The position numbers and the translations under genes are program-made. A stretch of 62,740 nt of DNA from Nanobdellota archaeon (lineage in GTDB: Archaea > Nanobdellota > Nanobdellia > Woesearchaeales > GW2011-AR9): positions 1 through 62,740 of the forward strand of contig JAUYPX010000039.1 in the NCBI GenBank assembly GCA_030697505.1, read 5' to 3'. This document shows positions 1 to 58,325 of this stretch, piece by piece. Below the pieces are notes generated by a model. It worked only from the letters and a program-made list of their open reading frames with translations. It did no database searches and was not told the origin of the DNA. Numbering within the stretch: the first letter of the stretch is position 1; the number at the start of each line of letters is the position of its first letter.

Positions 1-3000
1 TGAATATTTGTAGTACTGGTGCTGGTTGAACTACTTGGCGCTCCTCCTCCACTGCCCGGTTCTGCAATATTATCTATAGTGACAGATACTGTTTTGGTAT
101 TATTGATGTTACCGACGGTATCATTGGCAAAGACGGTGATGGTAAGGCTGCCTTCTGCTATGCTATTCGTATTTATAGAGACATTCCACATTCCAGATGT
201 ATTTGAGGCAGTAAGGTTGAACGGATTGGTGCCGTGGCTGAATTGGAAAAGAACTTTGCCTACATCAGTGAGAGAATCTCTCACCGTGGCGTTAAAATTG
301 CGGATGCCGCTCACGGTCGCTCCAGCAGCAGGCCCAGTTATGTTAACCGTCGGTGCTGTAAAATCAATCGTAAAATTGATGACCGCAGAATCATTGACAT
401 TATTTACCGTGTCATTGGCAACAATCCGTACTCCTTGTCTTCCTTCTGCTAAGGTCGAGAGGTTATAATTTACAATCCATTGGCCGGAGATATTTGTTCC
501 GGTAATGTTGAAATCCTGACTCGTGCCGTTGTCAAACCAGAAGTAGACCGTATCAAGGAGAAGTAAACTATCAAACACGCTGGCATTGAAAGTCTGGTTG
601 CTTGACCTAATGCTGAAATTGCTGTCATTCACGGGATTGTTCAGAAAGTTACGAGTGACATTTGGGGAAGTGAAGTCCACAGTAAAATTCATGAAATAGG
701 TATCATTGATATTATTGACGGTGTCGTTGGCGATTATTCGCACACCTTGCTTCTCTTCTGCTAACGTGGAGACATTGTAACTTATGGTCCATTGGCCGGA
801 ATTGTTGATGCCAGTTATATTTATGTCATTTCCAGTCCCATTATCCAACCAGAAGAACAATTTATTGATGTCGGTTAGAGTATCAAATGCACTGGCATTG
901 AAAGTTACATTTCCAGAACGGACACTATAATTACTGGCATTAAACAGAGTATTGGCATTGATAGAATTTATAGTTACATTTGGAGAAGTAAAGTCCACAG
1001 TGAAATTCATGAAATAGGTATCATTGACATTATTGACGGTGTCATTGGCGATAATTCGTACACCTTGTCTTCCTTCTGCTAACGTAGAGACATTGTAACT
1101 GACAATCCAATTTCCAGATTGGTTGACTGCGGTTACATTAATGTCATTTCCAGTTCCATTGTCCAACCAGAAGTAGACTCTGCTTACCCCGGTAAGAGCA
1201 TCAAAGATGCTGACATTAAAGGTTACATTTCCAGAACGGACACTAAAATTACTGGCATTAAACAGAGTATTGGCATTGAGAGAATTTATAGTTACATTAG
1301 GTCCTGTAAAGTCGACAGTAAAGTTGATGATCGCAGAATCATTGACATTATTTACCGTGTCATTGGCAACAATCCGTACTCCTTGTCTTCCTTCTGCCAA
1401 GGCTGACACATTGTAACTGATGGTCCATTGCCCGGAATTGTTAATCCCGGTTATATTTATGTCATTTCCAGTTCCGTTGTCCAGCCAGAAAAATAATCTA
1501 TTTATGTCAGTTAGAGTATCAAATGCACTGGCGTTAAAGGTTACATTTCCAGAACGGACACTATAATTACTGGCATTAAACAGAGTATTGGCATTGAGGG
1601 AATTGATAGTCACATTAGGAGAAGTGAAATCGACCGTAAAGTTGATGACCGCAGAATTATTGATATTGTTGACCGTGTCATTGGCGATGATTCGCACACC
1701 TTGCTTCCCTTCCGCCAATGTTGAAACATTGTAACTTACGGTCCATTGGCCGGAAGTGTTCAATCCGGTGACGTTAACGTCAGCGCTGGTTCCATTGTCG
1801 AACTGGAAGTAAACTGTACTAATTTGAGTGAAACTATCAAATACGCTGGCGTTGAAGGTTTGATTGCTTGATCTAATGCTAAAGTTGCTGTTATCAGCAG
1901 GATTGTTGAGGAAATTGATGGTGACATTTGGAGGCGTTTTATCTAGGATAGTAAGGTTATTAGAAATTACAACTGTTCCATCACCAGTTCCATTATTAGG
2001 GGTAGCATGCACGCTCCAGTTTTCACCTAGAATTGTTTCTTGGGCTGTAATGACGTTGGTTTGGTTTCTCCAGAGCGCATAGATCTGTTCATTGGAGAGA
2101 GAGCGATTGAAGATCATCACTTCGTCGATGGTTCCATTGAAAACATTAGAGGTCGCTCCTGATCCTCTTCCAATGTTGTAGGGAGTTTCATTATCCCAGG
2201 TTGTTGCATTCAATGACGTAAACGAATTAAGCACACATGGCTCTGCTGCTGCTTGTGCTCCGTCGATAAAGGTAGCCGCGTGTGTTAAGTTATATCTTCC
2301 AGTTACAAACACCCACGAATTCCATGACACAGCATTAGTAGTTGATTGTATAGAACACAATTTTGAGTTACTGCTTTTATTCTCATATATAATAAAATAG
2401 GTTCTATTAAGGTCTACCAGTGTACCGAAAAATAAAAAGTTGTTTAGGTTGTCAAGTCTAGATACTATAGTTGTCACTGCACTAGCGGATGTAGATTTTC
2501 CTTTTATGTATACCCATGAATTTATAGTGCACCCGTTAGTACATGCCAATCTAGTGCTGTTATTATCGCTCAAACCGATGTAATCATTGGCACCATCAAA
2601 CATATACGCTCCTTTTCCATCGTATCCCCCAGTGGAATTCCATAATACTCCCCCAGTTTCATTTCCATGATTTCTTAATCCGGAGTAATCCCATGTTTTA
2701 TTATCAGCGGTGGTACCGCTAGTCCCATTGATCCCTTCAAAGGGCATATTGAGTACGGCAATAGGACTGTTATTCATAAGCCAATTATAGATCACTTTCA
2801 GCGAATTGCCATTCGTCTGTGTAGTATTGTAAGCAGTAAGATTAGTATCTGTATCATTTTTACTAATATCTGTCGTATTAAGCACTAAAGCTATGCTTGG
2901 AGCATTCTGGATAGTTATTCCTTGTATTCCGATACTTGAGGTTTCTTTCTTGATAGTTTCAGGTTCAGCATATGTTTCAGTGATTATCGTAACTGCCTGT

Positions 3001-3850: not shown

Positions 3851-4711
3851 ATGTGGATTCACAACCTAGACCCAGTTCTCGCGCATCTAGGCCCATTAGA
3901 AATCCGTTGGTACGGTCTAGTGTATGTCTTAGGATTCTTCCTAGCCATTTTTTGGCTTAAATATATGCAAAAAAAAGGCTACCTCTCTCTTTCCCAAGAC
4001 GAGATTTGGGATTTTGTCTTTTATCTGATGCTCGGTGTCCTAATCGGTTCGAGACTGTTTGAAATATTCTGGGAACCGCAGCTCTATCTTTCTCACCCCC
4101 TCAATTTGTTTAAAATCTGGCAAGGGGGGATGAGCTTCCACGGCGGTTTGGTAGGGATTGTAACTGCGGCTTGGCTCTACTGTAAAAAGAAGAAGCTCTC
4201 TTTCGGGAAAATGGCTGACCTCATGAGTGTTCCCGCAATTTTCGCGTTGGCTTTAGGAAGGATTGCGAATTTTGTGAACGGAGAATTGGTAGGTCGAATT
4301 TGGGCTGGGAAATGGTGCGTGGTCTTTCCTGATTATGGCCCAGAATGCCGACACCCTAACATGATCTATTCTTTTTTTGAACGCATGCTAGTTTTTGGCT
4401 GGTTATTTCTCTTGACCTTCTGGAAAGAGTTCCAACCTGGTCAAGTCACTGGTGTTCTATTCCGTAGGAATGCTCCGAATGCTAATGAGGTTGGTGACCT
4501 TCCCCTCACTCCGTTCAGGGAAGGTTTCATCTTCTGGAATTTTGTCTTCTGGGAAGGGCTGGGAAGAATCATGGTCGATTTCTTCCGTGAAGATATCCTT
4601 TACTTTGGTTTCAGCTTAGGGCAATGGTTCAGCGCGGTGATGGTTGTTGCGGCAGTGATTGCCTTTGCGAAATATTACCAAGAAGATTGGAAGAAGATTT
4701 TTAAAAAATGA
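3851..4711 (+). CDS. lgt: Prolipoprotein diacylglyceryl transferase (Lgt) homologue
   Basis: LGPLEIRWYGLVYVLGF, WQGGMSFHGGLVG, GRIANFVNGELVGR, RHPNMIYS and GRIMVDFFRED match the conserved Lgt blocks as recalled from E. coli and B. subtilis Lgt. Confidence 0.85.
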   Translation: MWIHNLDPVLAHLGPLEIRWYGLVYVLGFFLAIFWLKYMQKKGYLSLSQDEIWDFVFYLMLGVLIGSRLFEIFWEPQLYLSHPLNLFKIWQGGMSFHGGLVGIVTAAWLYCKKKKLSFGKMADLMSVPAIFALALGRIANFVNGELVGRIWAGKWCVVFPDYGPECRHPNMIYSFFERMLVFGWLFLLTFWKEFQPGQVTGVLFRRNAPNANEVGDLPLTPFREGFIFWNFVFWEGLGRIMVDFFREDILYFGFSLGQWFSAVMVVAAVIAFAKYYQEDWKKIFKK

Positions 4712-4723
4712 AAATCACTATTG

Positions 4724-5200
4724 TTAATGGAGTAATCTCCCCTGAAATTTATCTCTTATCTCATTAATCTTCTTCTCGTTTAATTTGATAATAACTGACT
4801 TACACTTAACTAAAAATTCTGGAGCTCTCTTGATCATCTGGCGGTATTGTTCGTCTGGAACGGTTCTATCAATGTAATACTGGGAATCAACTCTTGCTTT
4901 CAAAGATTCTTCCATAAAATTTAATTCAGGTTCTTGAAAATAATCTTTAAGAAATCTTTTTGTAAATTCAATAGTACAGGAGTGAATTTCACATTTTATG
5001 CCGATCTTCATCAAAATAGCATAAAGCGAAAAGTAAATGGTGTAATATGCAGTCGAAATTTTCCAATCCTTAATAATATTCACTCGCATTGACTCAAGAG
5101 CTTCTTCAGCTTTCTTAATATACGCATTTGCAAGATCTGAATTTGGCTCAATTAAACTTAATCCTCCTTTCTTTCCTGCACACCATTTTATTTTATCCAT
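4724..5200 (-). CDS. HEPN-domain protein (toxin partner of the upstream nucleotidyltransferase)
   Basis: Size, helical composition and an 8-bp overlap with the MNT gene fit a HEPN protein. I saw no clear R-x4-6-H motif, only R...Y (KARVDSQYY). Confidence 0.6.
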   Translation of the reverse strand: MDKIKWCAGKKGGLSLIEPNSDLANAYIKKAEEALESMRVNIIKDWKISTAYYTIYFSLYAILMKIGIKCEIHSCTIEFTKRFLKDYFQEPELNFMEESLKARVDSQYYIDRTVPDEQYRQMIKRAPEFLVKCKSVIIKLNEKKINEIRDKFQGRLLH

Positions 5201-5783
5201 CCTTGAAAACCACCCGTATAAATTGCTCTACATTAACAAAAACCACGTGGTTTTTTAAAACTTCTTTCAAAAGGATATCTTTTGTCACATTTTTCTCAAA
5301 AGTTTTTAGGGGATAACATTTTACACTTATTTCTATGCCTAAATTTTTTGAAACTCTTTTTATCCCATCTTGGTTATAAGTACCAGCAACAAAAATATCT
5401 AAATCAGAACCTTCTTTCTCTAATCCCTTGACATAACTCCCAAAAATAACGGCAATTCCTTCGATATGGGGGGTTATTTTTTCTATGATCTCCTTAATCA
5501 AAAGTCTTTTTTCTAAAAAGGCAATTGCTTTGTATTGTTCTACCAAAACGAGATACCTCTTAGTAAACTCACTGGGATTTATTTTATAGGTCTTGATTTT
5601 CCCCCTAGTTTTTGATTCTATAATCCCTTTATCTTCTAGATCTTCAAGAATAAGCTGTGCGGTTCTGGGGCTTATTTTTAACAATCTCTCAACTTCCCTA
5701 ATATAATATTCTCTACTAAAATCATTGGTGAATAGAGATAAGACTTGCAGGGTGTTCTCGGTCATTCTAACTTTTTCATACAT
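5193..5783 (-). CDS. Minimal nucleotidyltransferase (MNT) with N-terminal winged HTH
   Basis: GSYVKGLEKEGSDLDIFV (G-S...D-x-D NTase motif). N-terminal wHTH LLKISPRTAQLILEDLEDKGII. Confidence 0.7.
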   Translation of the reverse strand: MYEKVRMTENTLQVLSLFTNDFSREYYIREVERLLKISPRTAQLILEDLEDKGIIESKTRGKIKTYKINPSEFTKRYLVLVEQYKAIAFLEKRLLIKEIIEKITPHIEGIAVIFGSYVKGLEKEGSDLDIFVAGTYNQDGIKRVSKNLGIEISVKCYPLKTFEKNVTKDILLKEVLKNHVVFVNVEQFIRVVFKDG

Positions 5784-7993: not shown

Positions 7994-8362
7994 TTATTTT
8001 AAGAACATCACATTAGGTAAATCTTTAAATTCTTTGTCTCCGGTTAAAAAGAGGATATTCTTTAATCTAGCTACTTCATAACCAATACAATCTGCATAAG
8101 ATAATTTCTTTTTTTTGTGTACGAACCTAAACAGCATTGCTTTTGTTATGATTTCCCCATCTACGTCTATTACATATGATAATAATGTCTTCAACATCTC
8201 ATCAGCCATTACTTTTCCCATTTCGTTCAATACTACGTAGTACACCTCGGCAACATTAAAGATGGTGGTTATTCCAGTGTGCTCTTCAAAATAAGATTTA
8301 TAATGCACGTTACCATGAAAATATTCTATAAATGCAAAACTATCATAAAAATACTTGCTCAT
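7994..8362 (-). CDS. vapC: PIN-domain toxin (VapC-like)
   Basis: 122 aa. Acidic residue near the N terminus (FYDSFAFIEY), C-terminal LSYADCIGYEVA...FLTGDKEF. 4-bp overlap with the antitoxin gene. Confidence 0.65.
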   Translation of the reverse strand: MSKYFYDSFAFIEYFHGNVHYKSYFEEHTGITTIFNVAEVYYVVLNEMGKVMADEMLKTLLSYVIDVDGEIITKAMLFRFVHKKKKLSYADCIGYEVARLKNILFLTGDKEFKDLPNVMFLK

Positions 8363-8810: not shown

Positions 8811-8830
8811 TCGCCCTTATAGCTCAACGG
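8811..8830 (+). other. Exact 20-nt duplicate of the 5' end of tRNA-Thr (acceptor 5' strand, D stem 5' strand and part of the D loop)
   Basis: TCGCCCTTATAGCTCAACGG at 8811-8830 is identical to 9100-9119. Confidence 0.9.
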
Positions 8831-9049
8831 GAAATGTCACGCCACGTGAAAACTGAAAGAATATCAGTTTTCTGTGCACGAAAACCAACAACGATTTGTT
8901 TTCGGCACTGAAATGAGATATTTTTCTCATTTCATGTGCAGAAATGTGATAGTTTTCGCATTTCTTGCATTTCCAAGGCGAGTGCGCTTCACACTCGAAG
9001 GGACAACGATCCCTTCGGTGTACCGATGGGATGATATCCCATCCAGTAC
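8830..9049 (+). ncRNA. Multi-hairpin structured RNA module, copy A (alpha, beta, gamma hairpins plus 3 further hairpins)
   Basis: Closing stem GGAAATG 8830-36 / CATTTCC 8968-74 encloses four hairpins. They are GAAAACTGA-aagaata-TCAGTTTTC (8848-72), GAAAACCAA-CAACGA-TTTGTTTTC (8880-8903), TGAAATGAGA-TATTTT-TCTCATTTCA (8909-34) and GAAATGTG-ATAGTTTT-CGCATTTC (8941-64). Three more follow: CGAGTG/CACTCG (8979-97), GAAGGGA-CAACGA-TCCCTTC (8997-9016) and GTAC..GATGGGA-tgata-TCCCATC..GTAC (9020-49). Confidence 0.6.
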
Positions 9050-9101
9050 TTCGTTCAGCAGCACAACAAATAAAAATAAACACATTTTTGTAACAATTAT
9101 C

Positions 9102-9193
9102 GCCCTTATAGCTCAACGGCAGAGCGACTGCTTCGTATATGCGTAATGCGTCAAAAGAGCAGTAGGCTGAGGGTTCAAATCCCTCTAAGGGCT
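9102..9193 (+). tRNA. tRNA-Thr(CGU) with a 20-nt intron at the canonical 37/38 position
   Basis: Acceptor GCCCTTA/TAAGGGC 7/7. D stem GCTC/GAGC, D loop AACGGCA. Anticodon stem ACTGC (9127-31)/GCAGT (9159-63). Loop TTCGTA + intron 9138-9157 + A. Variable AGGCT. T arm GAGGG-TTCAAAT-CCCTC. An AT-rich TATA-like box lies about 27 nt upstream (9070-9080). I could not draw a clean BHB by hand. Confidence 0.85.
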
Positions 9194-9195
9194 TT

Positions 9196-9284
9196 ACTTT
9201 CATCGTGAGGTCGAACGTAGAGAGTACCTCACTTGAGAACGATTCGCCTAGTGTAACTGGCGTTCAAATCCCTCTAAGGGCTTT
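9196..9284 (+). other. 66-nt element homologous to the tRNA-Phe T-loop intron, followed by an exact 23-nt duplicate of the tRNA-Thr 3' end
   Basis: GTTCAAATCCCTCTAAGGGCTTT at 9262-9284 is identical to 9173-9195. The intervening sequence contains TCGTGAGG-T-CGAACG-TA-GAGAG, compared with TCGTGAGG-AAA-CGAACG-A-GAG in 41974-42020. Confidence 0.75.
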
Positions 9285-10342: not shown

Positions 10343-10409
10343 GTATTTCGGTCTTGCAACTGTTTTAAAAATCTATCTCTACAAATCGTTATTAAGCGTT
10401 TCTGTTTAT

Positions 10410-10540
10410 GGAACACGAAAACAAACGACAATTTGTTTTCGGTTCTGAAATGTGGTAGTTTCAAGAAATGTGAAAAATATCCCATTTCTGAACTGAAAAT
10501 TTGATCTTTGTCAATTTTCATGTTCCGCATTTCATGAACA
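10410..10540 (+). ncRNA. Multi-hairpin structured RNA module, copy B (intergenic, no tRNA sequence nearby)
   Basis: GAAC..GAAAACAAA-CGACAA-TTTGTTTTC..GTTC (10411-45). TGAAATG (10446-52)/CATTTCA (10528-34) closes a domain with TAGTTT at 10456-61. That domain encloses GAAATG...CATTTC (10465-88) and TGAAAATT...AATTTTCA (10494-10520). Confidence 0.5.
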
Positions 10541-24865: not shown

Positions 24866-24905
24866 CCACTCCCGCACTGGACAACCTTGGCTAGAATATA
24901 TAAAC
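24866..24905 (+). promoter_or_regulatory. Copy 1 of the repeated CACTGGACA-box + GGCTAGAATATATAAAC (BRE/TATA-like) element
   Basis: CCACTCCCGCACTGGACAACCTTGGCTAGAATATATAAAC differs from 41692-41731 at 2 positions. Confidence 0.6.
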
Positions 24906-25064
24906 AAGTTCTTAACAACAATTTAATGAAAAAGAGATGATACAAAACTTCCCATAAAATTCTTTCAGCTTTCAGCAGAGAAGAAATTTAAGGAGTTTTG
25001 CAAGAGTTGCTCTTTTTTGAAACTTCAAGTTTGTAAGTATGTAAAACTTGAAGGTGAATGAAAA

Positions 25065-41595: not shown

Positions 41596-41731
41596 ATTTT
41601 GTTCACCACTGGACACCCACTGGACAAGTTCTCTAACTTCCAATGGTTCAAAATTTTAATGATTAAAGCTGTATTCTCAATATTTCACTATCCACTCCCG
41701 CACTGGACAACCCCGGCTAGAATATATAAAC
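41596..41731 (+). promoter_or_regulatory. Copy 2 of the repeated element: CACTGGACA boxes plus the BRE/TATA-like promoter of tRNA-Phe
   Basis: CCACTGGACAC, CCCACTGGACAAG and CGCACTGGACAACC boxes. GGCTAGAATATATAAAC has its TATA centre about 28 nt upstream of the tRNA 5' end at 41755. Confidence 0.65.
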
Positions 41732-41754: not shown

Positions 41755-42033
41755 GCCCAGGTCGCTTAACCTGGTATAGCGAGAGCGTGAAAATCAACAC
41801 AAGAAATCAAACAAAGATTTGATTTCTGTGCAAAAATGTGATAGTTTTCACATTTTTTGCAACGATTGATTTTCTGCTCTGAAATTAAGTAGTTTCTTAA
41901 TTTCATGAGTCTGAAACTCCGGGCAAGGAGTCCAGAAAACTCTTTTGTCCTGACCGACTTTGTGGGTTCGAATAGTTTCCGAAACTCGTGAGGAAACGAA
42001 CGAGAGCGGATCTCGACTTTCCCACCCTGGGCG
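41755..42033 (+). tRNA. tRNA-Phe(GAA) interrupted by a 124-nt structured intron in the anticodon stem, a 21-nt 37/38 intron, a 47-nt T-loop intron and 13 unexplained extra nt before the T stem
   Basis: Acceptor GCCCAGG (41755-61)/CCTGGGC (42026-32) 7/7. D arm GCTT-AACCTGGTA-TAGC. Anticodon stem AGAG (41782-85) + T (41910) pairs with ACTCT (41939-43), 5/5. Loop CTGAAA (41911-16) + A (41938). T arm GTGGG-TTCGAAT (41962-73)...CCCAC (42021-25). A near-BHB can be drawn for the 37/38 intron: 4-bp helix TCTG 41910-13/CAGA 41933-36 flanked by AAA bulges. Confidence 0.75.
41786..41909 (+). ncRNA. Multi-hairpin structured RNA module, copy C (intron 1 of tRNA-Phe)
   Basis: GAAAATCAA (41789-97)/TTGATTTTC (41866-74) closes a three-way junction. 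The junction holds GAAATCAAA-CAAAGA-TTTGATTTC (41803-26) and AAAAATGTG-ATAGTTTT-CACATTTTT (41832-57), with CAACGA in the junction strand. TGAAATTAAG-TAGTTT-CTTAATTTCA follows (41880-41905). Intron ends are ambiguous by 3 nt because of a GAG repeat. Confidence 0.65.
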
Positions 42034-42984: not shown

Positions 42985-43587
42985 ATGGCTAAGAAAAAAG
43001 CCTCTGAAGCAGCAGCAGCTGAAACTTCAGAAGAGCAGAAAGTAGAACCTAAAAAACCGAAAAATTCCGTATTAGGCATTCTTGCCGGAGAACGGGTCAT
43101 TACTGAATCTTCTGATGATGCGCGTGAATTCTACAACCAGTCTCGTTTTGGAACCCTCAATGAAGGAGGGAAAGTTGAATTATCACTGTTAGAAGCATTG
43201 TATTTGCTGGAACGGGAGCGTCTTTTAATAAAAAGCGAATCCGGTAAAGTCCTGCCCTTTGAACTATATGTCAAGAAAGCCCGTAAAGTAGAGCCTAACT
43301 TCTGGATCAGATATGTTGTTTTTAGAGATATGAGAAACCGGGGCTACATAATCAAAACTGCGCTTAAGTTTGGCGCAGATTTCCGCGTCTACGATCGTGG
43401 CGTAAAACCGGGAGAAGATCACGCCAAATGGATTGTCTTTCCCGTTCATGAAGCCAGTGTTTTCACCTGGCACGAATTCAGCGCCAAGAACAGAGTCGCT
43501 CACAGCACCAAGAAGCGATTATTATTAGCTATTGTCGATGATGAGAATGATGTAACCTATTACCAGGTCAGCTGGACCAGGCCATAA
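42985..43587 (+). CDS. endA: tRNA-splicing endonuclease, single-unit (alpha-type) subunit with a Lys/Ala/Glu-rich N-terminal extension
   Basis: YVVFRDMRNRGYIIKTALKFGADFRVYDRG, HAKWIVFPV, RVAHSTKKRLLLAIV (Tyr/His/Lys catalytic positions). Confidence 0.85.
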   Translation: MAKKKASEAAAAETSEEQKVEPKKPKNSVLGILAGERVITESSDDAREFYNQSRFGTLNEGGKVELSLLEALYLLERERLLIKSESGKVLPFELYVKKARKVEPNFWIRYVVFRDMRNRGYIIKTALKFGADFRVYDRGVKPGEDHAKWIVFPVHEASVFTWHEFSAKNRVAHSTKKRLLLAIVDDENDVTYYQVSWTRP

Positions 43588-50800: not shown

Positions 50801-50892
50801 TATTTGTTCTTAGAAGGCAATTTTATATTTAAATTTACTGCCTGCTTTATTCGTCTTTATGCAAAAAATGTCAGGTCTTCAACTTCTAAAAT

Positions 50893-50959
50893 CTGCTTTT
50901 TCCACCAGTATATTTCACTGGTGGTGAATCAGTGATTTCACCTAGGCTGGAAAAAGCAG
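50893..50959 (-). ncRNA. Y-shaped hairpin element adjoining module D
   Basis: CTGCTTTTTCCA (50893-904)/TGGAAAAAGCAG (50948-59), 12 bp, encloses CCACCAGT/ACTGGTGG and GGTGAA/TTCACC. Strand inferred from module D. Confidence 0.4.
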
Positions 50960-50964
50960 GGTCG

Positions 50965-51203
50965 GAAAACTGACCAGAGCGAAGCATGAAATAAAGAAAC
51001 TACTTTATTTCAGCTCAGAAAAGAAATCGTTGTTTCTTTTCTTGAGCGAGTATGCATGAAATTTGAAAACTATCAAATTTCAGCACTGAAAACTAATCGT
51101 TGTTAGTTTTCATGTGCCGCTGGTCCACTCGGAAACAAAGTTTCCGGTGTGCCAGAGAAATCGCTGTTTCTCTGTGCATATTGGCCAGCGGTGGTCAGTT
51201 TTC
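50965..51203 (-). ncRNA. Multi-hairpin structured RNA module, copy D (239 nt, minus orientation), closed by a 12-bp stem that overlaps the stop codon of the transglutaminase-like gene
   Basis: Closing pair 50965-76/51192-203 (GAAAACTGACCA/TGGTCAGTTTTC on the minus strand). On the minus strand the hairpins are TGAAATAAAG-TAGTTT-CTTTATTTCA (50987-51012), GAAAAGAAA-CAACGA-TTTCTTTTC (51018-41), TGAAATTTG-ATAGTTTT-CAAATTTCA (51057-82) and TGAAAACTAA-CAACGA-TTAGTTTTCA (51087-112). CCGCTGG/CCAGCGG (51117-23/51185-91) encloses CAGAGAAA-CAGCGA-TTTCTCTG and GGAAAC-ttt-GTTTCC. Confidence 0.6.
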
Positions 51204-56630: not shown

Positions 56631-56707
56631 GTAAAGTCACCAACCTCATTGGCATTCGGAGCATTCCTTGGGAATAGAACGAAGTGACTTGACGTTGAGG
56701 TATGAGT
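56616..56707 (+). repeat. Duplication of the last 13 nt plus stop of the permease gene, bracketing a 66-nt hairpin-ended insert
   Basis: TTGAGGTATGAGT occurs at 56616-28 and 56695-707, each followed by a stop codon. Between them, AAGTCAC (56634-40) and GTGACTT (56684-90) are inverted. Confidence 0.6.
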
Positions 56708-58074: not shown

Positions 58075-58082
58075 TGATTTTT

Positions 58083-58225
58083 ACTATCCACTCCCGCACC
58101 ATCCAACCCACTGGACAAACTCTCGTAAACCACCCTCTCCAGAAATTCTCATTTTTTAAGTTCTATTGCTGTAAAAATCATGGCCACTGGACACAGCGGA
58201 CAAATCCGGCTAAACTATATAAACC
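58083..58225 (+). promoter_or_regulatory. Copy 3 of the repeated CACTGGACA-box / TATA element (rearranged)
   Basis: ACTATCCACTCCCGCAC, CCCACTGGACAAAC, GCCACTGGACACAGCGGACAAATCCGGCTAAACTATATAAACC. Confidence 0.55.
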
Positions 58226-58325
58226 TCCTTCTCTGCTAAGCTTATATGGAAAAACAAATAGTCATCAGATTAAGGACAGGGAAGATATTTAAAGAATAAA
58301 ATAACAAAGAAGAGCGCTTATTAAA

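Follow-up and report, generated by a model that had tools for sequence, protein, structure and literature searches.

Can a tRNA gene broken by three inserts, the largest of them lodged in the anticodon stem, be a real gene, and if so, what does it encode and can this copy still give rise to a working tRNA? The locus that raises these questions lies in a 62,740-nt stretch of Nanobdellota archaeon DNA (contig JAUYPX010000039.1; hereafter the window), where all parts of one tRNA fall within positions 41755-42033, separated by inserts of 124, 21 and 47 nt (Table 1). We show that this region is a real tRNA gene with its own conserved promoter motif. The first-pass annotation, made from the letters alone, had described a GAA tRNA gene split at about 30/31, at 37/38 and in the T loop. 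ARAGORN, minimum free energy (MFE) folding, covariation and orthologues agree with that description: the pieces lie where they had been placed, the inserts have the sizes claimed, and the flanking exons are recovered as one tRNA.

Assembly of the tRNA from four exon pieces far exceeds chance expectation. The annotation had suggested running ARAGORN on the locus; unspliced, the locus received no call from ARAGORN, nor from Rfam at gathering or E ≤ 10 thresholds, and the joined exons were called as tRNA(gaa). The joined exons also form a five-arm cloverleaf by MFE alone. Once the inserts are removed, all four stems are present together with the conserved U8, A14, G18G19, U33 and the T loop UUCRAAU; CCA is not encoded at the 3' end of exon 4. 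Across nine family members (orthologues or paralogues), 95.8% of stem cells are paired, and compensatory changes are seen in 10 of the 21 stem pairs, a level that none of 500 shuffles reached. Neither the 124-nt nor the 47-nt insert is present at exactly these sites in orthologues from related Woesearchaeota and Nanoarchaeota, and GAA genes without inserts 1 and 3 occur in L107, L052, L115 and L124. Both L107 and L052 have exons 1 and 2 joined and the T arm uninterrupted, with one exon difference each from the window gene. Because the window exons match the intact L107 gene except for one D-loop base, no decay is visible in the window gene. Upstream, we infer a promoter role for the CCACTCCCGCACTGGACAACC-CGGCTAGAATATATAAA motif, whose TATA-like box is centred about 29 nt 5' of the tRNA start.

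Table 1. Coordinates of the interrupted tRNA gene, its inserts and neighbouring features in the window.
Feature	Coordinates	Strand	Basis
Conserved promoter-like motif CCACTCCCGCACTGGACAACC-CGGCTAGAATATATAAA	41692..41731	+	Repeat families D7/D8; upstream of every orthologue
Exon 1: acceptor 5' strand, U8, D arm, G26, anticodon-stem 27-30	41755..41785	+	Joined to exon 2 in L107 and L052
Insert 1 (124 nt, at 30/31)	41786-41909	+	Absent at the exact site in related orthologues
Outer 62-nt element, 5' part (C, G, first strand of hairpin 1)	41786..41800	+	L026 has the element at this tRNA site, lacking the inner copy
Inner 62-nt element (W ACAC / W' GTGC / W GCAA), in loop of outer hairpin 1	41801..41862	+	Taken out whole by the element finder
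Outer element, 3' part: remainder of hairpin 1, linker GCTC, hairpin 2 and T-GAG	41863..41909	+	Element finder
Exon 2: U31 and anticodon-loop 32-37 (CUGAAA), anticodon GAA	41910..41916	+	Orthologue comparison
Insert 2: 21-nt intron, canonical 37/38 site	41917..41937	+	Intron in all 12 family members; relaxed BHB
Exon 3: A38, anticodon-stem 3' strand, 18-nt variable arm (41944-41961), T-stem 5' strand, T loop to A59	41938..41972	+	Variable arm kept in intron-poor orthologues
Insert 3: lineage-specific 47-nt T-loop intron, 59/60 register	41973..42019 (equivalently 41974-42020)	+	None in orthologues; BHB register score
Exon 4: U60, T-stem 3' strand, acceptor 3' strand, discriminator G73	42020..42033 (42021-42033 in alternative register)	+	
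EndA tRNA splicing endonuclease, alpha4-like	42985..43587	+	Pfam PF02778, PF01974

Some boundaries can be drawn in more than one way. Those of insert 1 are ambiguous by up to 3 nt, those of its outer element by up to 4 nt, and the placement of insert 3 by one T. An alternative exon choice through TCTGAAA at 41878, with introns of 92 and 53 nt, leads to an identical mature sequence and was set aside as not parsimonious; the first insertion was placed as in Table 1 because of the orthologues and the element boundaries. A fourth mini-intron, which the annotation had entertained between the anticodon and T stems, is ruled out: the 18-nt stretch is a variable arm of class II type, and its stem-loop is conserved in orthologues that lack the other inserts.

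Only inserts 2 and 3 look like bulge-helix-bulge (BHB) introns, both in relaxed form. In insert 2, the anticodon stem provides the outer helix, the 3-nt 3' bulge is AA/A, the central helix CUGA:CCAG is paired at three of four positions, and the 5' site lies in a loop. An intron of 19-33 nt occupies the 37/38 site in all 12 family members, nine of which have a 4/4 central helix, against 3/4 in the window gene. We show insert 2 to be the ancestral intron of the family, and because it is conserved in all orthologues, it must be spliced. In insert 3, the outer helix is the T stem, the 3' bulge is UU/U and the central helix UUCG:CGAC is again 3/4. The annotation had placed this insert at 60/61; a 47-nt T-loop insert it remains, and the 59/60 register is preferred because of its BHB score (3/5/2, versus 0/0/1 at 60/61) and the precedent of the lineage, in which fifteen T-loop introns at 59/60 have a 4/4 helix with a 5-bp T-stem outer helix, compared with 3/4 plus 5 in the window intron. 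At 59/60, the insert has a 3/4 helix, a 5-bp outer helix and a 2-bp inner helix, and in the MFE fold the 3' bulge measures 4 nt instead of 3. This intron is unique to the window lineage, found in no orthologue, and is present in the independent Logan contig L001.

No BHB forms at insert 1 in any of four possible registers, the best score (3/3/1) being at background level. De novo BHB scanning is non-discriminating in this AT-rich, palindromic sequence (191 relaxed matches in 380 nt), and MFE folds gave no clean BHBs, even for the conserved canonical 37/38 intron. The EndA gene that the annotation had noted was confirmed 950 nt downstream of the tRNA gene by its two Pfam domains, and its product aligns collinearly, and free of insertions, with M. 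jannaschii EndA 1a79 (E = 5e-36). It is presumed to be the enzyme for the two BHB-type introns. In each of these, the outer helix, the 3-nt bulge and the 4-bp helix would make up the 3' half of a BHB motif, and the alpha4-type EndA probably excises both introns, after which an RtcB-type ligase would join the exons and CCA would be added.

Such a state is less exceptional than the annotation had supposed, since multi-intron tRNAs are already documented, with intron positions 30/31, 37/38 and 59/60 on record (PMC4090602). For DPANN genomes, one Woesearchaeote among them, Kaneta et al. predicted tRNA genes and report, in some of the lineages, more disruption and incomplete tRNA sets; they also report alpha4 EndAs with an L3 loop in several DPANN lineages, associated with more tRNA gene disruption (PMC5829648). 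The window gene resembles the multiply disrupted tRNA genes of Thermoproteales, Nanoarchaeota and ARMAN/DPANN in having several inserts at known positions and an EndA gene. However, only two of its three inserts are BHB-like, both relaxed, while the largest lacks the motif, and the window EndA is a plain alpha4 enzyme without the specificity-broadening loop.

The largest insert consists of two nested copies of a 62-nt two-hairpin element (124 = 2 x 62), of which the element finder removes two units. It had been described both as a copy of a repeated module, which it is, and as one large structured intron, which it is not, given the two nested elements and the missing BHB. The inner element is absent from the L026 copy, and the junction of insert 1 is conserved in neither L026 nor L120. 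In the MFE fold, AGAGC of exon 1 pairs with the linker GCUCU (z = -6.1). Large structured tRNA introns can carry a box C/D sRNA, as does the euryarchaeal tRNA-Trp intron, and insert 1 is similar in being an insert of more than 100 nt with strong secondary structure in a tRNA gene. Nonetheless, it does not show the box C/D combination (C RUGAUGA, D CUGA, K-turn), it sits at 30/31 rather than 37/38, and it is repetitive DNA rather than a unique guide RNA; a search of the inserts for C/D boxes, ribozymes and other Rfam families found none, with C/D matches at noise level only (E > 7).

The element has the architecture W-A-hairpin1-W'-hairpin2-T-W, in which each flank is the reverse complement of the 4-nt linker W', and eight copies are present in the window. 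Detection was based on two adjacent hairpins and made no use of the flanks. Of the 110 detections so obtained, 98 have a 5' flank triplet complementary to the linker throughout, and about 100 have a 3' flank that matches the linker complement at two or more of three positions. The linker occurs as GCTC, GTAC, GTGC/GCAC, GCGC and GTTC/GAAC, the flanks matching each variant, and the architecture is identical on both strands. In addition to position 30/31 in the window and in L026, the element was found between tRNA positions 7/8 (L120 and L121, two samples), inside an existing T-loop intron (L073 versus L060), in a promoter motif (L031) and in other non-coding regions, which had no Rfam match at gathering thresholds. 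The type-2 hairpin pattern is present in 47 genome stretches from MAGs labelled Woese- or Nanoarchaeota, "archaeon" or "uncultured Methanosarcinales"; the 14 contigs with the last label are taken to be mislabels.

Terminal hairpins with a short internal guide complementary to the target are shared with PATE/REP-like derivatives of IS200/IS605. The likeness to IS200/IS605 ends, PATEs and REP/BIME sequences, which are moved by HUH Y1 enzymes, extends to subterminal hairpins with a bulged base, to insertion beside a short target recognised by pairing with a 4-nt guide at the hairpin foot, and to small, multi-copy units that nest in one another. In IS608, for example, the guide AAAG serves the target TTAC, and insertion of the left end is invariably 3' to that target (PMC5027513). 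In contrast to IS200/IS605, a single central linker of the 62-nt element serves both junctions, which gives it the same flank on the left and on the right; its architecture does not differ between strands, and its linker varies between copies with the flanks following. The element is thus at most a candidate member of this class. No Y1 transposase (TnpA/RAYT) was found among 20 small window ORFs scanned against Pfam, and DNA mobility is therefore read from the insertion pattern only. The small ORFs of the window include HEPN, PIN, NTase, NUDIX and others. In Thermoproteales, near-identical inserts also occur in different tRNAs and at different positions, which is attributed to gain at the DNA level by an unknown mechanism (2010 work, as summarised in PMC4090602). 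The units transposed there are BHB introns, whereas the unit in the window, a 62-nt palindrome of two hairpins whose linker resembles a guide, is also found in promoters, other introns and other non-coding regions.

Can the interrupted copy mature? The explanation to which we give slightly better than even chances is that of a real class II GAA gene whose inserts 2 and 3 are cut by EndA and whose insert 1 is a guide-directed DNA insertion, the window copy being somewhat more likely than not left unmatured. We read insert 1 as DNA transposition into the anticodon stem: it would have arrived by guide-directed insertion at the DNA level beside a short target matching the linker (GAG^T), much as IS200/IS605 ends are positioned. 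If the window copy matures, insert 1 would have to leave by an undescribed excision route. Because no known splicing signal brackets insert 1, we lean toward a copy that is not matured into a working tRNA by known machinery, which we regard as somewhat likelier than one that is. Deletion of the tRNA from this locus in L129 and L130, which suggests that the locus is dispensable, is offered in support of this explanation.

Several observations nevertheless count against it, some of which favour a different account, in which all three inserts are removed from the precursor, the nested element acts as an intron, and the tRNA is functional. The element sits in exon positions of otherwise intact tRNA genes (at 30/31 in the window and L026, at 7/8 in L120/L121; three such genes) with conserved exons and good canonical introns, which is easier to understand if it is removed from the RNA. 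The window exons have stayed conserved despite two successive insertions, with no decay visible against L107. The three-way covariation of linker and flanks could equally serve RNA structure, the transposition reading lacks a transposase among the small ORFs scanned, and the element fold is very stable (z as above). At the 3' junction of insert 1, a half BHB can be drawn, with termini CGUG:CAUG, bulge AG/U31 and an outer helix of 2-3 bp (G30:C32, A29:U33; score 3/3/1). Removal may proceed through EndA acting on a relaxed motif, or through BHB-independent resolution of the W'/flank junction, with RtcB ligation and a rod-like circular RNA as by-product. The association of L3-loop alpha4 EndAs with tRNA gene disruption in several DPANN lineages, and the incomplete tRNA sets predicted there, fit this account (PMC5829648). 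On the other hand, the score of the half motif is at the background level described above and no register gives a BHB; by its geometry, the 5' cut should fall 6 nt into the element rather than at G30/C; the window EndA lacks any inserted loop, being collinear with the strict M. jannaschii alpha4 enzyme; and the element is strand-symmetric and also present in apparently non-RNA DNA (the L031 promoter), as expected of a DNA element. We consider this account a real but lesser possibility.

A bolder combination, which we think unlikely, would make the 62-nt element a transposon-born "proto-intron", inserted by guide-target pairing and excised from RNA through W/W' without a BHB as a rod-like circle, in a class II tRNA that reads Phe codons in a Woesearchaeal clade and arose by alloacceptor shift from tRNA-Leu(UAA). 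If true, it would explain why tRNA genes tolerate the element at 30/31 and 7/8.

The host gene itself is not a conventional tRNA-Phe. Of the original label, tRNA-Phe(GAA), the anticodon holds: the loop CUGAAAA is the only register with a BHB-like 3' half. The body is of Leu/Ser type, with G73, A37 and U20, a long variable arm that forms a separate stem, a D stem of 3 bp together with the 13:22 position, and a normal 7/5 acceptor/T structure. The variable arm measures 14-21 nt in all nine aligned members, with a stem of 3-6 bp (for example, AUCUG:CAGAU in L115). The class I tRNA-Phe identity set of yeast and archaea comprises a variable loop of 4-5 nt, A73, G20 and G37, none of which is found here (18-nt arm, G73, U20, A37). 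A Woesearchaeal class I tRNA-Phe (L003 7668-7783) does have A73, G37 and a short variable loop, and no genes were shared between it and the window clade by synteny.

Members of the family lie between the ribulose-phosphate epimerase gene (rpe) and radC-endA, and the order tRNA-radC-endA is conserved in relatives. Locus, promoter, 3' flank and a homologous body are common to the window gene and a tRNA-Leu(UAA) orthologue group: the anticodon is UAA in L059, L112, L117, L120, L122 and L127, and GAA in the window, L115 and L124, and the closest relatives of the window body are the UAA (Leu) tRNAs of this locus. The archaeal tRNA-Leu discriminator is A73 (the Haloferax rule); G73 is nonetheless found throughout the family, UAA members included, and a canonical A73 tRNA-Leu(GAG) occurs in another Woesearchaeote, L048. 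We thus show that the window gene is a class II GAA tRNA of a conserved Woesearchaeal/Nanoarchaeotal family that carries UAA or GAA. A search of the window for further hidden tRNAs, tRNA-Leu(UAA) and class I tRNA-Phe among them, found none. Window genes use TTY for Phe, and codon reassignment was rejected, as F or Y stands opposite TTT/TTC, and L or I opposite TTA/TTG, in the FBA and FEN1 homologues.

There are precedents for anticodon shifts and for class II tRNAs with non-cognate anticodons (PMC3923123, PMC7609411). As in alloacceptor remolding and allo-tRNAs, a long-arm G73 body here bears the anticodon of an amino acid normally served by a class I tRNA, and syntenic orthologues differ in anticodon (UAA versus GAA). 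Allo-tRNAs, however, are bacterial and either rare or linked to transposons, with acceptor/T structures of 8/4 or 9/3, whereas the window tRNA is archaeal, 7/5, and conserved at a fixed locus, with compensatory changes, in at least four lineages.

The gene could instead be a tRNA-Ser, if the 21-nt intron were spliced at 34/35 to give the loop CUGGAAA and anticodon GGA. The D arm is identical to that of the tRNA-Ser(CGA/GCU/UGA/GGA) of the lineage, all of which have G73, the variable arm is long, and the intron CCAG pairs perfectly with CUGG but leaves an A35-C mismatch with CUGA. This register scores 2/0/0, against 3/4/0 for 37/38, and the body is, as noted, nearest to the UAA (Leu) tRNAs of this locus. 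Moreover, the intron UCAG of L115 and L124 is perfectly complementary to CUGA, and GAA is therefore the selected anticodon; on the register scores and this helix, the GGA register was rejected, and a serine tRNA is very improbable. Least credible is that the 124-nt insert is an assembly artefact, with repeated elements mis-joined into the tRNA gene: although the element has eight copies in 62.7 kb and L001 breaks inside the inner element at window 41803, exon order is correct on both sides of insert 1, L001 reproduces 41803-42033 exactly, L026, a genome assembled independently, carries this element at the identical tRNA site, and the hairpin stems of the two copies are found only at this site.

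The mechanism of archaeal tRNA intron transposition has been stated as unknown (PMC4090602). In the present case, an element that is small and abundant and follows a recognisable targeting rule is seen to have landed in tRNA exons, existing tRNA introns and promoters, which makes archaeal tRNA intron gain testable. Interrupted tRNA genes of this kind are invisible to standard tRNA finders, which partly explains the incomplete tRNA sets of DPANN archaea. As for the host, compensatory changes accompany the conservation of a tRNA that joins a long arm and G73 to a Phe anticodon, and some relatives carry UAA instead at this locus. That leaves two options: charging of a class II tRNA by PheRS, for which we know of no precedent, or partial reading of Phe codons as Leu or Ser.

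Re-reading of the sequence placed every tRNA part described in the first-pass annotation at its reported coordinates (table). Unspliced, the locus gave no ARAGORN call and no Rfam match; with the exons joined in silico, ARAGORN called tRNA(gaa), and minimum free energy alone formed the acceptor, D, anticodon, variable and T arms. Two GAA copies from relatives, those of L107 and L052, match the window exons but for one base each, and in both AGAG runs straight into TCTGAAA and the T loop is unbroken; therefore, the 124-nt and 47-nt stretches are clean insertions in the window.

Segments of the tRNA(GAA) gene in the window and positions of element copies there and in relatives
Feature	Location or context	Source
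Exon 1 of tRNA(GAA) gene	41755-41785	window
Insert, 124 nt	41786-41909	window
TCTGAAA exon segment	41910-41916	window
Insert, 21 nt	41917-41937	window
Exon 3 of tRNA(GAA) gene	41938-41973	window
Insert, 47 nt	41974-42020	window
3' end of tRNA(GAA) gene	42021-42033	window
Element copy	inside promoter motif of another locus	L031
Element copy	within existing T-loop intron	L073 vs L060
Element copy	loop of own hairpin	window tRNA locus
Element copy	UAA tRNA, 30/31 site as in window	L026
Element, 63 nt	between positions 7 and 8 of tRNA-Leu(UAA) orthologue	L120 5857-6015, also L121

A metagenome scan with the D-arm sequence, together with fetched radC loci, gathered twelve family members beyond the window. 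The copy at the radC locus carries a UAA anticodon in L059, L112, L117, L120, L122 and L127, and a GAA one in the window, L115 and L124. The window gene order (class II FBA, RpiB, ribulose-phosphate epimerase, tRNA, RadC, EndA, two unknown genes, FEN1, NTPase and Trm5/TYW2) is kept in relatives with RadC 73–93% identical, and a motif, CCACTCCCGCACTGGACAACC-CGGCTAGAATATATAAAC, probably the tRNA promoter, ends ~24 nt upstream of the tRNA in every relative. In the spliced-gene alignment (n = 9), 95.8% of stem cells are paired, with both-sided changes in 10 of 21 stem pairs; none of 500 shuffled controls reached the observed pairing or covariation and slid controls reached pairing of only 27%–58%, which identifies a family of tRNAs under structural selection. 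The radC locus of L129 and L130 (1480-1510) has lost the tRNA: between the promoter and the radC start codon only GCCC is left. GAA copies are also found elsewhere, that of L052 upstream of RtcB and that of L107 downstream of a promoter with homology to window 58107-58187. Further copies of the promoter-like motif and of the short CCACTGGACA repeat occur at window 24866-24921, 58079-58240 and 41600-41630. Because the 58190-type promoter has tRNA(GAA) downstream in L107 and no tRNA in the window, movement of tRNA cassettes between promoter-bearing sites is suggested.

Two of the inserts resemble bulge-helix-bulge (BHB) introns. The 37/38 intron, present in 12/12 family members compared (19–33 nt), has the anticodon stem as outer helix, a 3-nt bulge AA/A, and a central helix CUGA:CCAG paired at 3/4 (a single A35-C mismatch), with the 5' site within a loop. 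The T-loop insert had been placed at 60/61, a register that scores 0; only 59/60 works, with the T stem as outer helix, a UU/U bulge and UUCG:CGAC at 3/4. In other 59/60 introns of the lineage (n = 15) the UUCA:UGAA helix is perfect and the intron terminates as GAAAG/UCC; compared with such clearly spliced motifs both window introns are therefore relaxed versions. BHB-like motifs occur at these two proposed insertion sites, and no register gives a BHB at 30/31. EndA, the splicing endonuclease, aligns collinearly to the strict alpha4 enzyme of M. jannaschii, with no loop inserted. It probably copes with relaxed motifs, given that splicing of the conserved 37/38 introns is required. A possible fourth mini-intron, read from an extra 13 nt before the T stem, was rejected: the 18-nt stretch separating the anticodon stem from the T stem persists in every orthologue, even those whose sole intron is canonical, and folds as a stem-loop (AUCUG-GCCA-CAGAU in L115, GUCU-GCCA-AGAC in L059), the class II variable arm.

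The 124-nt insert, rightly recognized at first pass as a repeated module, is exactly two 62-nt units, one nested in the other. Each unit reads W(4 nt)-A-hairpin-W'-hairpin-T-W, where the central linker W' is the reverse complement of the flank W, and the architecture is identical on the reverse strand. W varies by copy (GAGC, GTAC, GTGC/GCAC, GCGC, GTTC/GAAC). Although detection used adjacent hairpin pairs only and left flanks out of the criterion, the 5' flank triplet was fully complementary to the linker in 98 of 110 distinct detections, with the 3' flank also matching. Eight copies occupy four sites in the window, and the repeated-hairpin pattern matched 47 DNA stretches in reference genomes, all from MAGs labelled Woesearchaeota, Nanoarchaeota/Nanoarchaeia or 'archaeon' save 14 contigs labelled 'uncultured Methanosarcinales', which we take to be mislabels. 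As we read the tabulated cases, the inserted segment is C-A/G-hairpin1-W'-hairpin2-T-g1g2g3, placed 3' of a g1g2g3-like target (GAG^U31 in the window, AAG^U in L026, AGG^U8 in L120). IS200/IS605 left ends likewise always insert 3' of a tetranucleotide that pairs to a guide located at the foot of the hairpin (PMC5027513); here, however, one central guide would serve both junctions. These insertion patterns suggest that the element moves at the DNA level. No transposase was found among 20 small ORFs of the window scanned against Pfam, and the element had no Rfam family match and no C/D boxes. Two further element pairs, adjacent or nested, lie at window 10394-10525 and 8846-8939, where alternating W/W' tetranucleotides separate the hairpins, as if each copy created new targets for the next.

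The 124-nt insert had also been proposed as a large structured intron, yet no register gave a BHB, the best score not exceeding background (191 hits), and in the minimum free energy fold (z = -6.1) the linker instead pairs with AGAGC at the end of exon 1, sequestering it in a helix. On balance, and with limited confidence, we favour the reading that the window copy is not matured by known machinery. Removal of the insert at the RNA level, yielding a mature tRNA, is a tentative but substantial alternative: the element is tolerated in exon positions of three tRNA genes that otherwise look intact (L120 retains the rest of its tRNA-Leu(UAA) gene and a canonical BHB intron, CUUA:UAAG, 4/4), and the window exons are those of the uninterrupted L107 gene bar one D-loop base. 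The element termini CGUG...CAUG with G30:C32 and A29:U33 even form half a BHB around the 3' junction, but its geometry predicts a wrong 5' cut and EndA is of the strict type. Moreover, the element also hits non-RNA DNA, at least one relative (L129) can dispense with the tRNA locus, and some orthologues carry stem mismatches, all of which favour a window copy that is not matured.

The tRNA at window 9102-9193, called Arg(tcg) by ARAGORN, matches tRNA-Thr(CGU) of L035 at U73 and in the anticodon arm (ACUGC / UUCGUA + 20-nt intron + A / GCAGU). Copies of its first 18 nt and last 20 nt lie at 8814-8831 and 9264-9283, respectively; the 270 nt in between contain two elements and are similar to the T-loop introns (GTCACGCCAC...) of the lineage. 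The tRNAs of 8814-9283 may be nested or duplicated. Near this tRNA-Thr locus lie a HEPN and nucleotidyltransferase pair and a PIN-domain protein, toxin-antitoxin-like (4724-5783 and 7994-8362, reverse strand). The gene at L010 2130-2218 (reverse strand), an ARAGORN 'tRNA-Leu(taa)', resembles tRNA-Asn(GUU) with a 15–16 nt non-canonical intron near 31/32 and looks like another misread by standard finders. A conserved, strongly structured non-coding region at 50880-51200 (reverse strand), with homologues in L002, L004, L009, L012, L027, L038 and L046, two elements inside (50986-51117) and no Rfam recognition, may be a structural RNA candidate. Five tandem repeats of ~318 nt occupy the left end of the window (328-1893), and a 48-nt inverted repeat (92%) lies at 4454-4501 and 56633-56680, 52 kb apart.

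tRNAs with several introns were already known, as were introns at 30/31 and 59/60 (PMC4090602), and for DPANN genomes greater disruption of tRNA genes and predicted tRNA sets that are incomplete had been reported (PMC5829648). As far as the literature was searched, the invasion of tRNA exons and introns by a two-hairpin element that bears a guide is new, as is a conserved class II GAA-anticodon tRNA alternating with UAA at one locus, for which the nearest precedents are allo-tRNAs and anticodon shifts (PMC3923123, PMC7609411).

The anticodon supports the initial tRNA-Phe label, but nothing else does: the window tRNA has G73, A37, U20 and a D arm (TCGCTTAACCTGGTATAGCG) identical to that of the lineage's tRNA-Ser (CGA, GCU, UGA, GGA), while in the class I tRNA-Phe of a Woesearchaeote (L003) these positions include A73 and G37, and the variable loop is short. 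Among the GAA genes, compensatory changes occur in the acceptor (GCCCAGG/CCTGGGC, GCCCGTG/CACGGGC, GCCCACG/CGTGGGC), anticodon (AGAGU/ACUCU, AGUGU/ACACU) and T stems, which, with an intron segment fully complementary to CUGA in L115 and L124, means that GAA is a selected state and not an error. The code of the window genes is standard, TTT/TTC aligning to F or Y of homologues at 15 of 22 positions and TTA/TTG to L or I at 28 of 36. More G73 tRNAs that combine a long arm with a Ser-type D arm (L054, L062, L068, L057/L092) carry Leu anticodons AAG, GAG and CAA and include an odd loop, CUGACCC; L048 has a canonical A73 tRNA-Leu(GAG) with a different D arm. What marks a tRNA as Leu or Ser thus looks unusual in these lineages. 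By the identity rules of other organisms, charging of the window tRNA by PheRS via the anticodon would make it a class II tRNA-Phe, and charging by LeuRS or SerRS via the body would lead to mistranslation.
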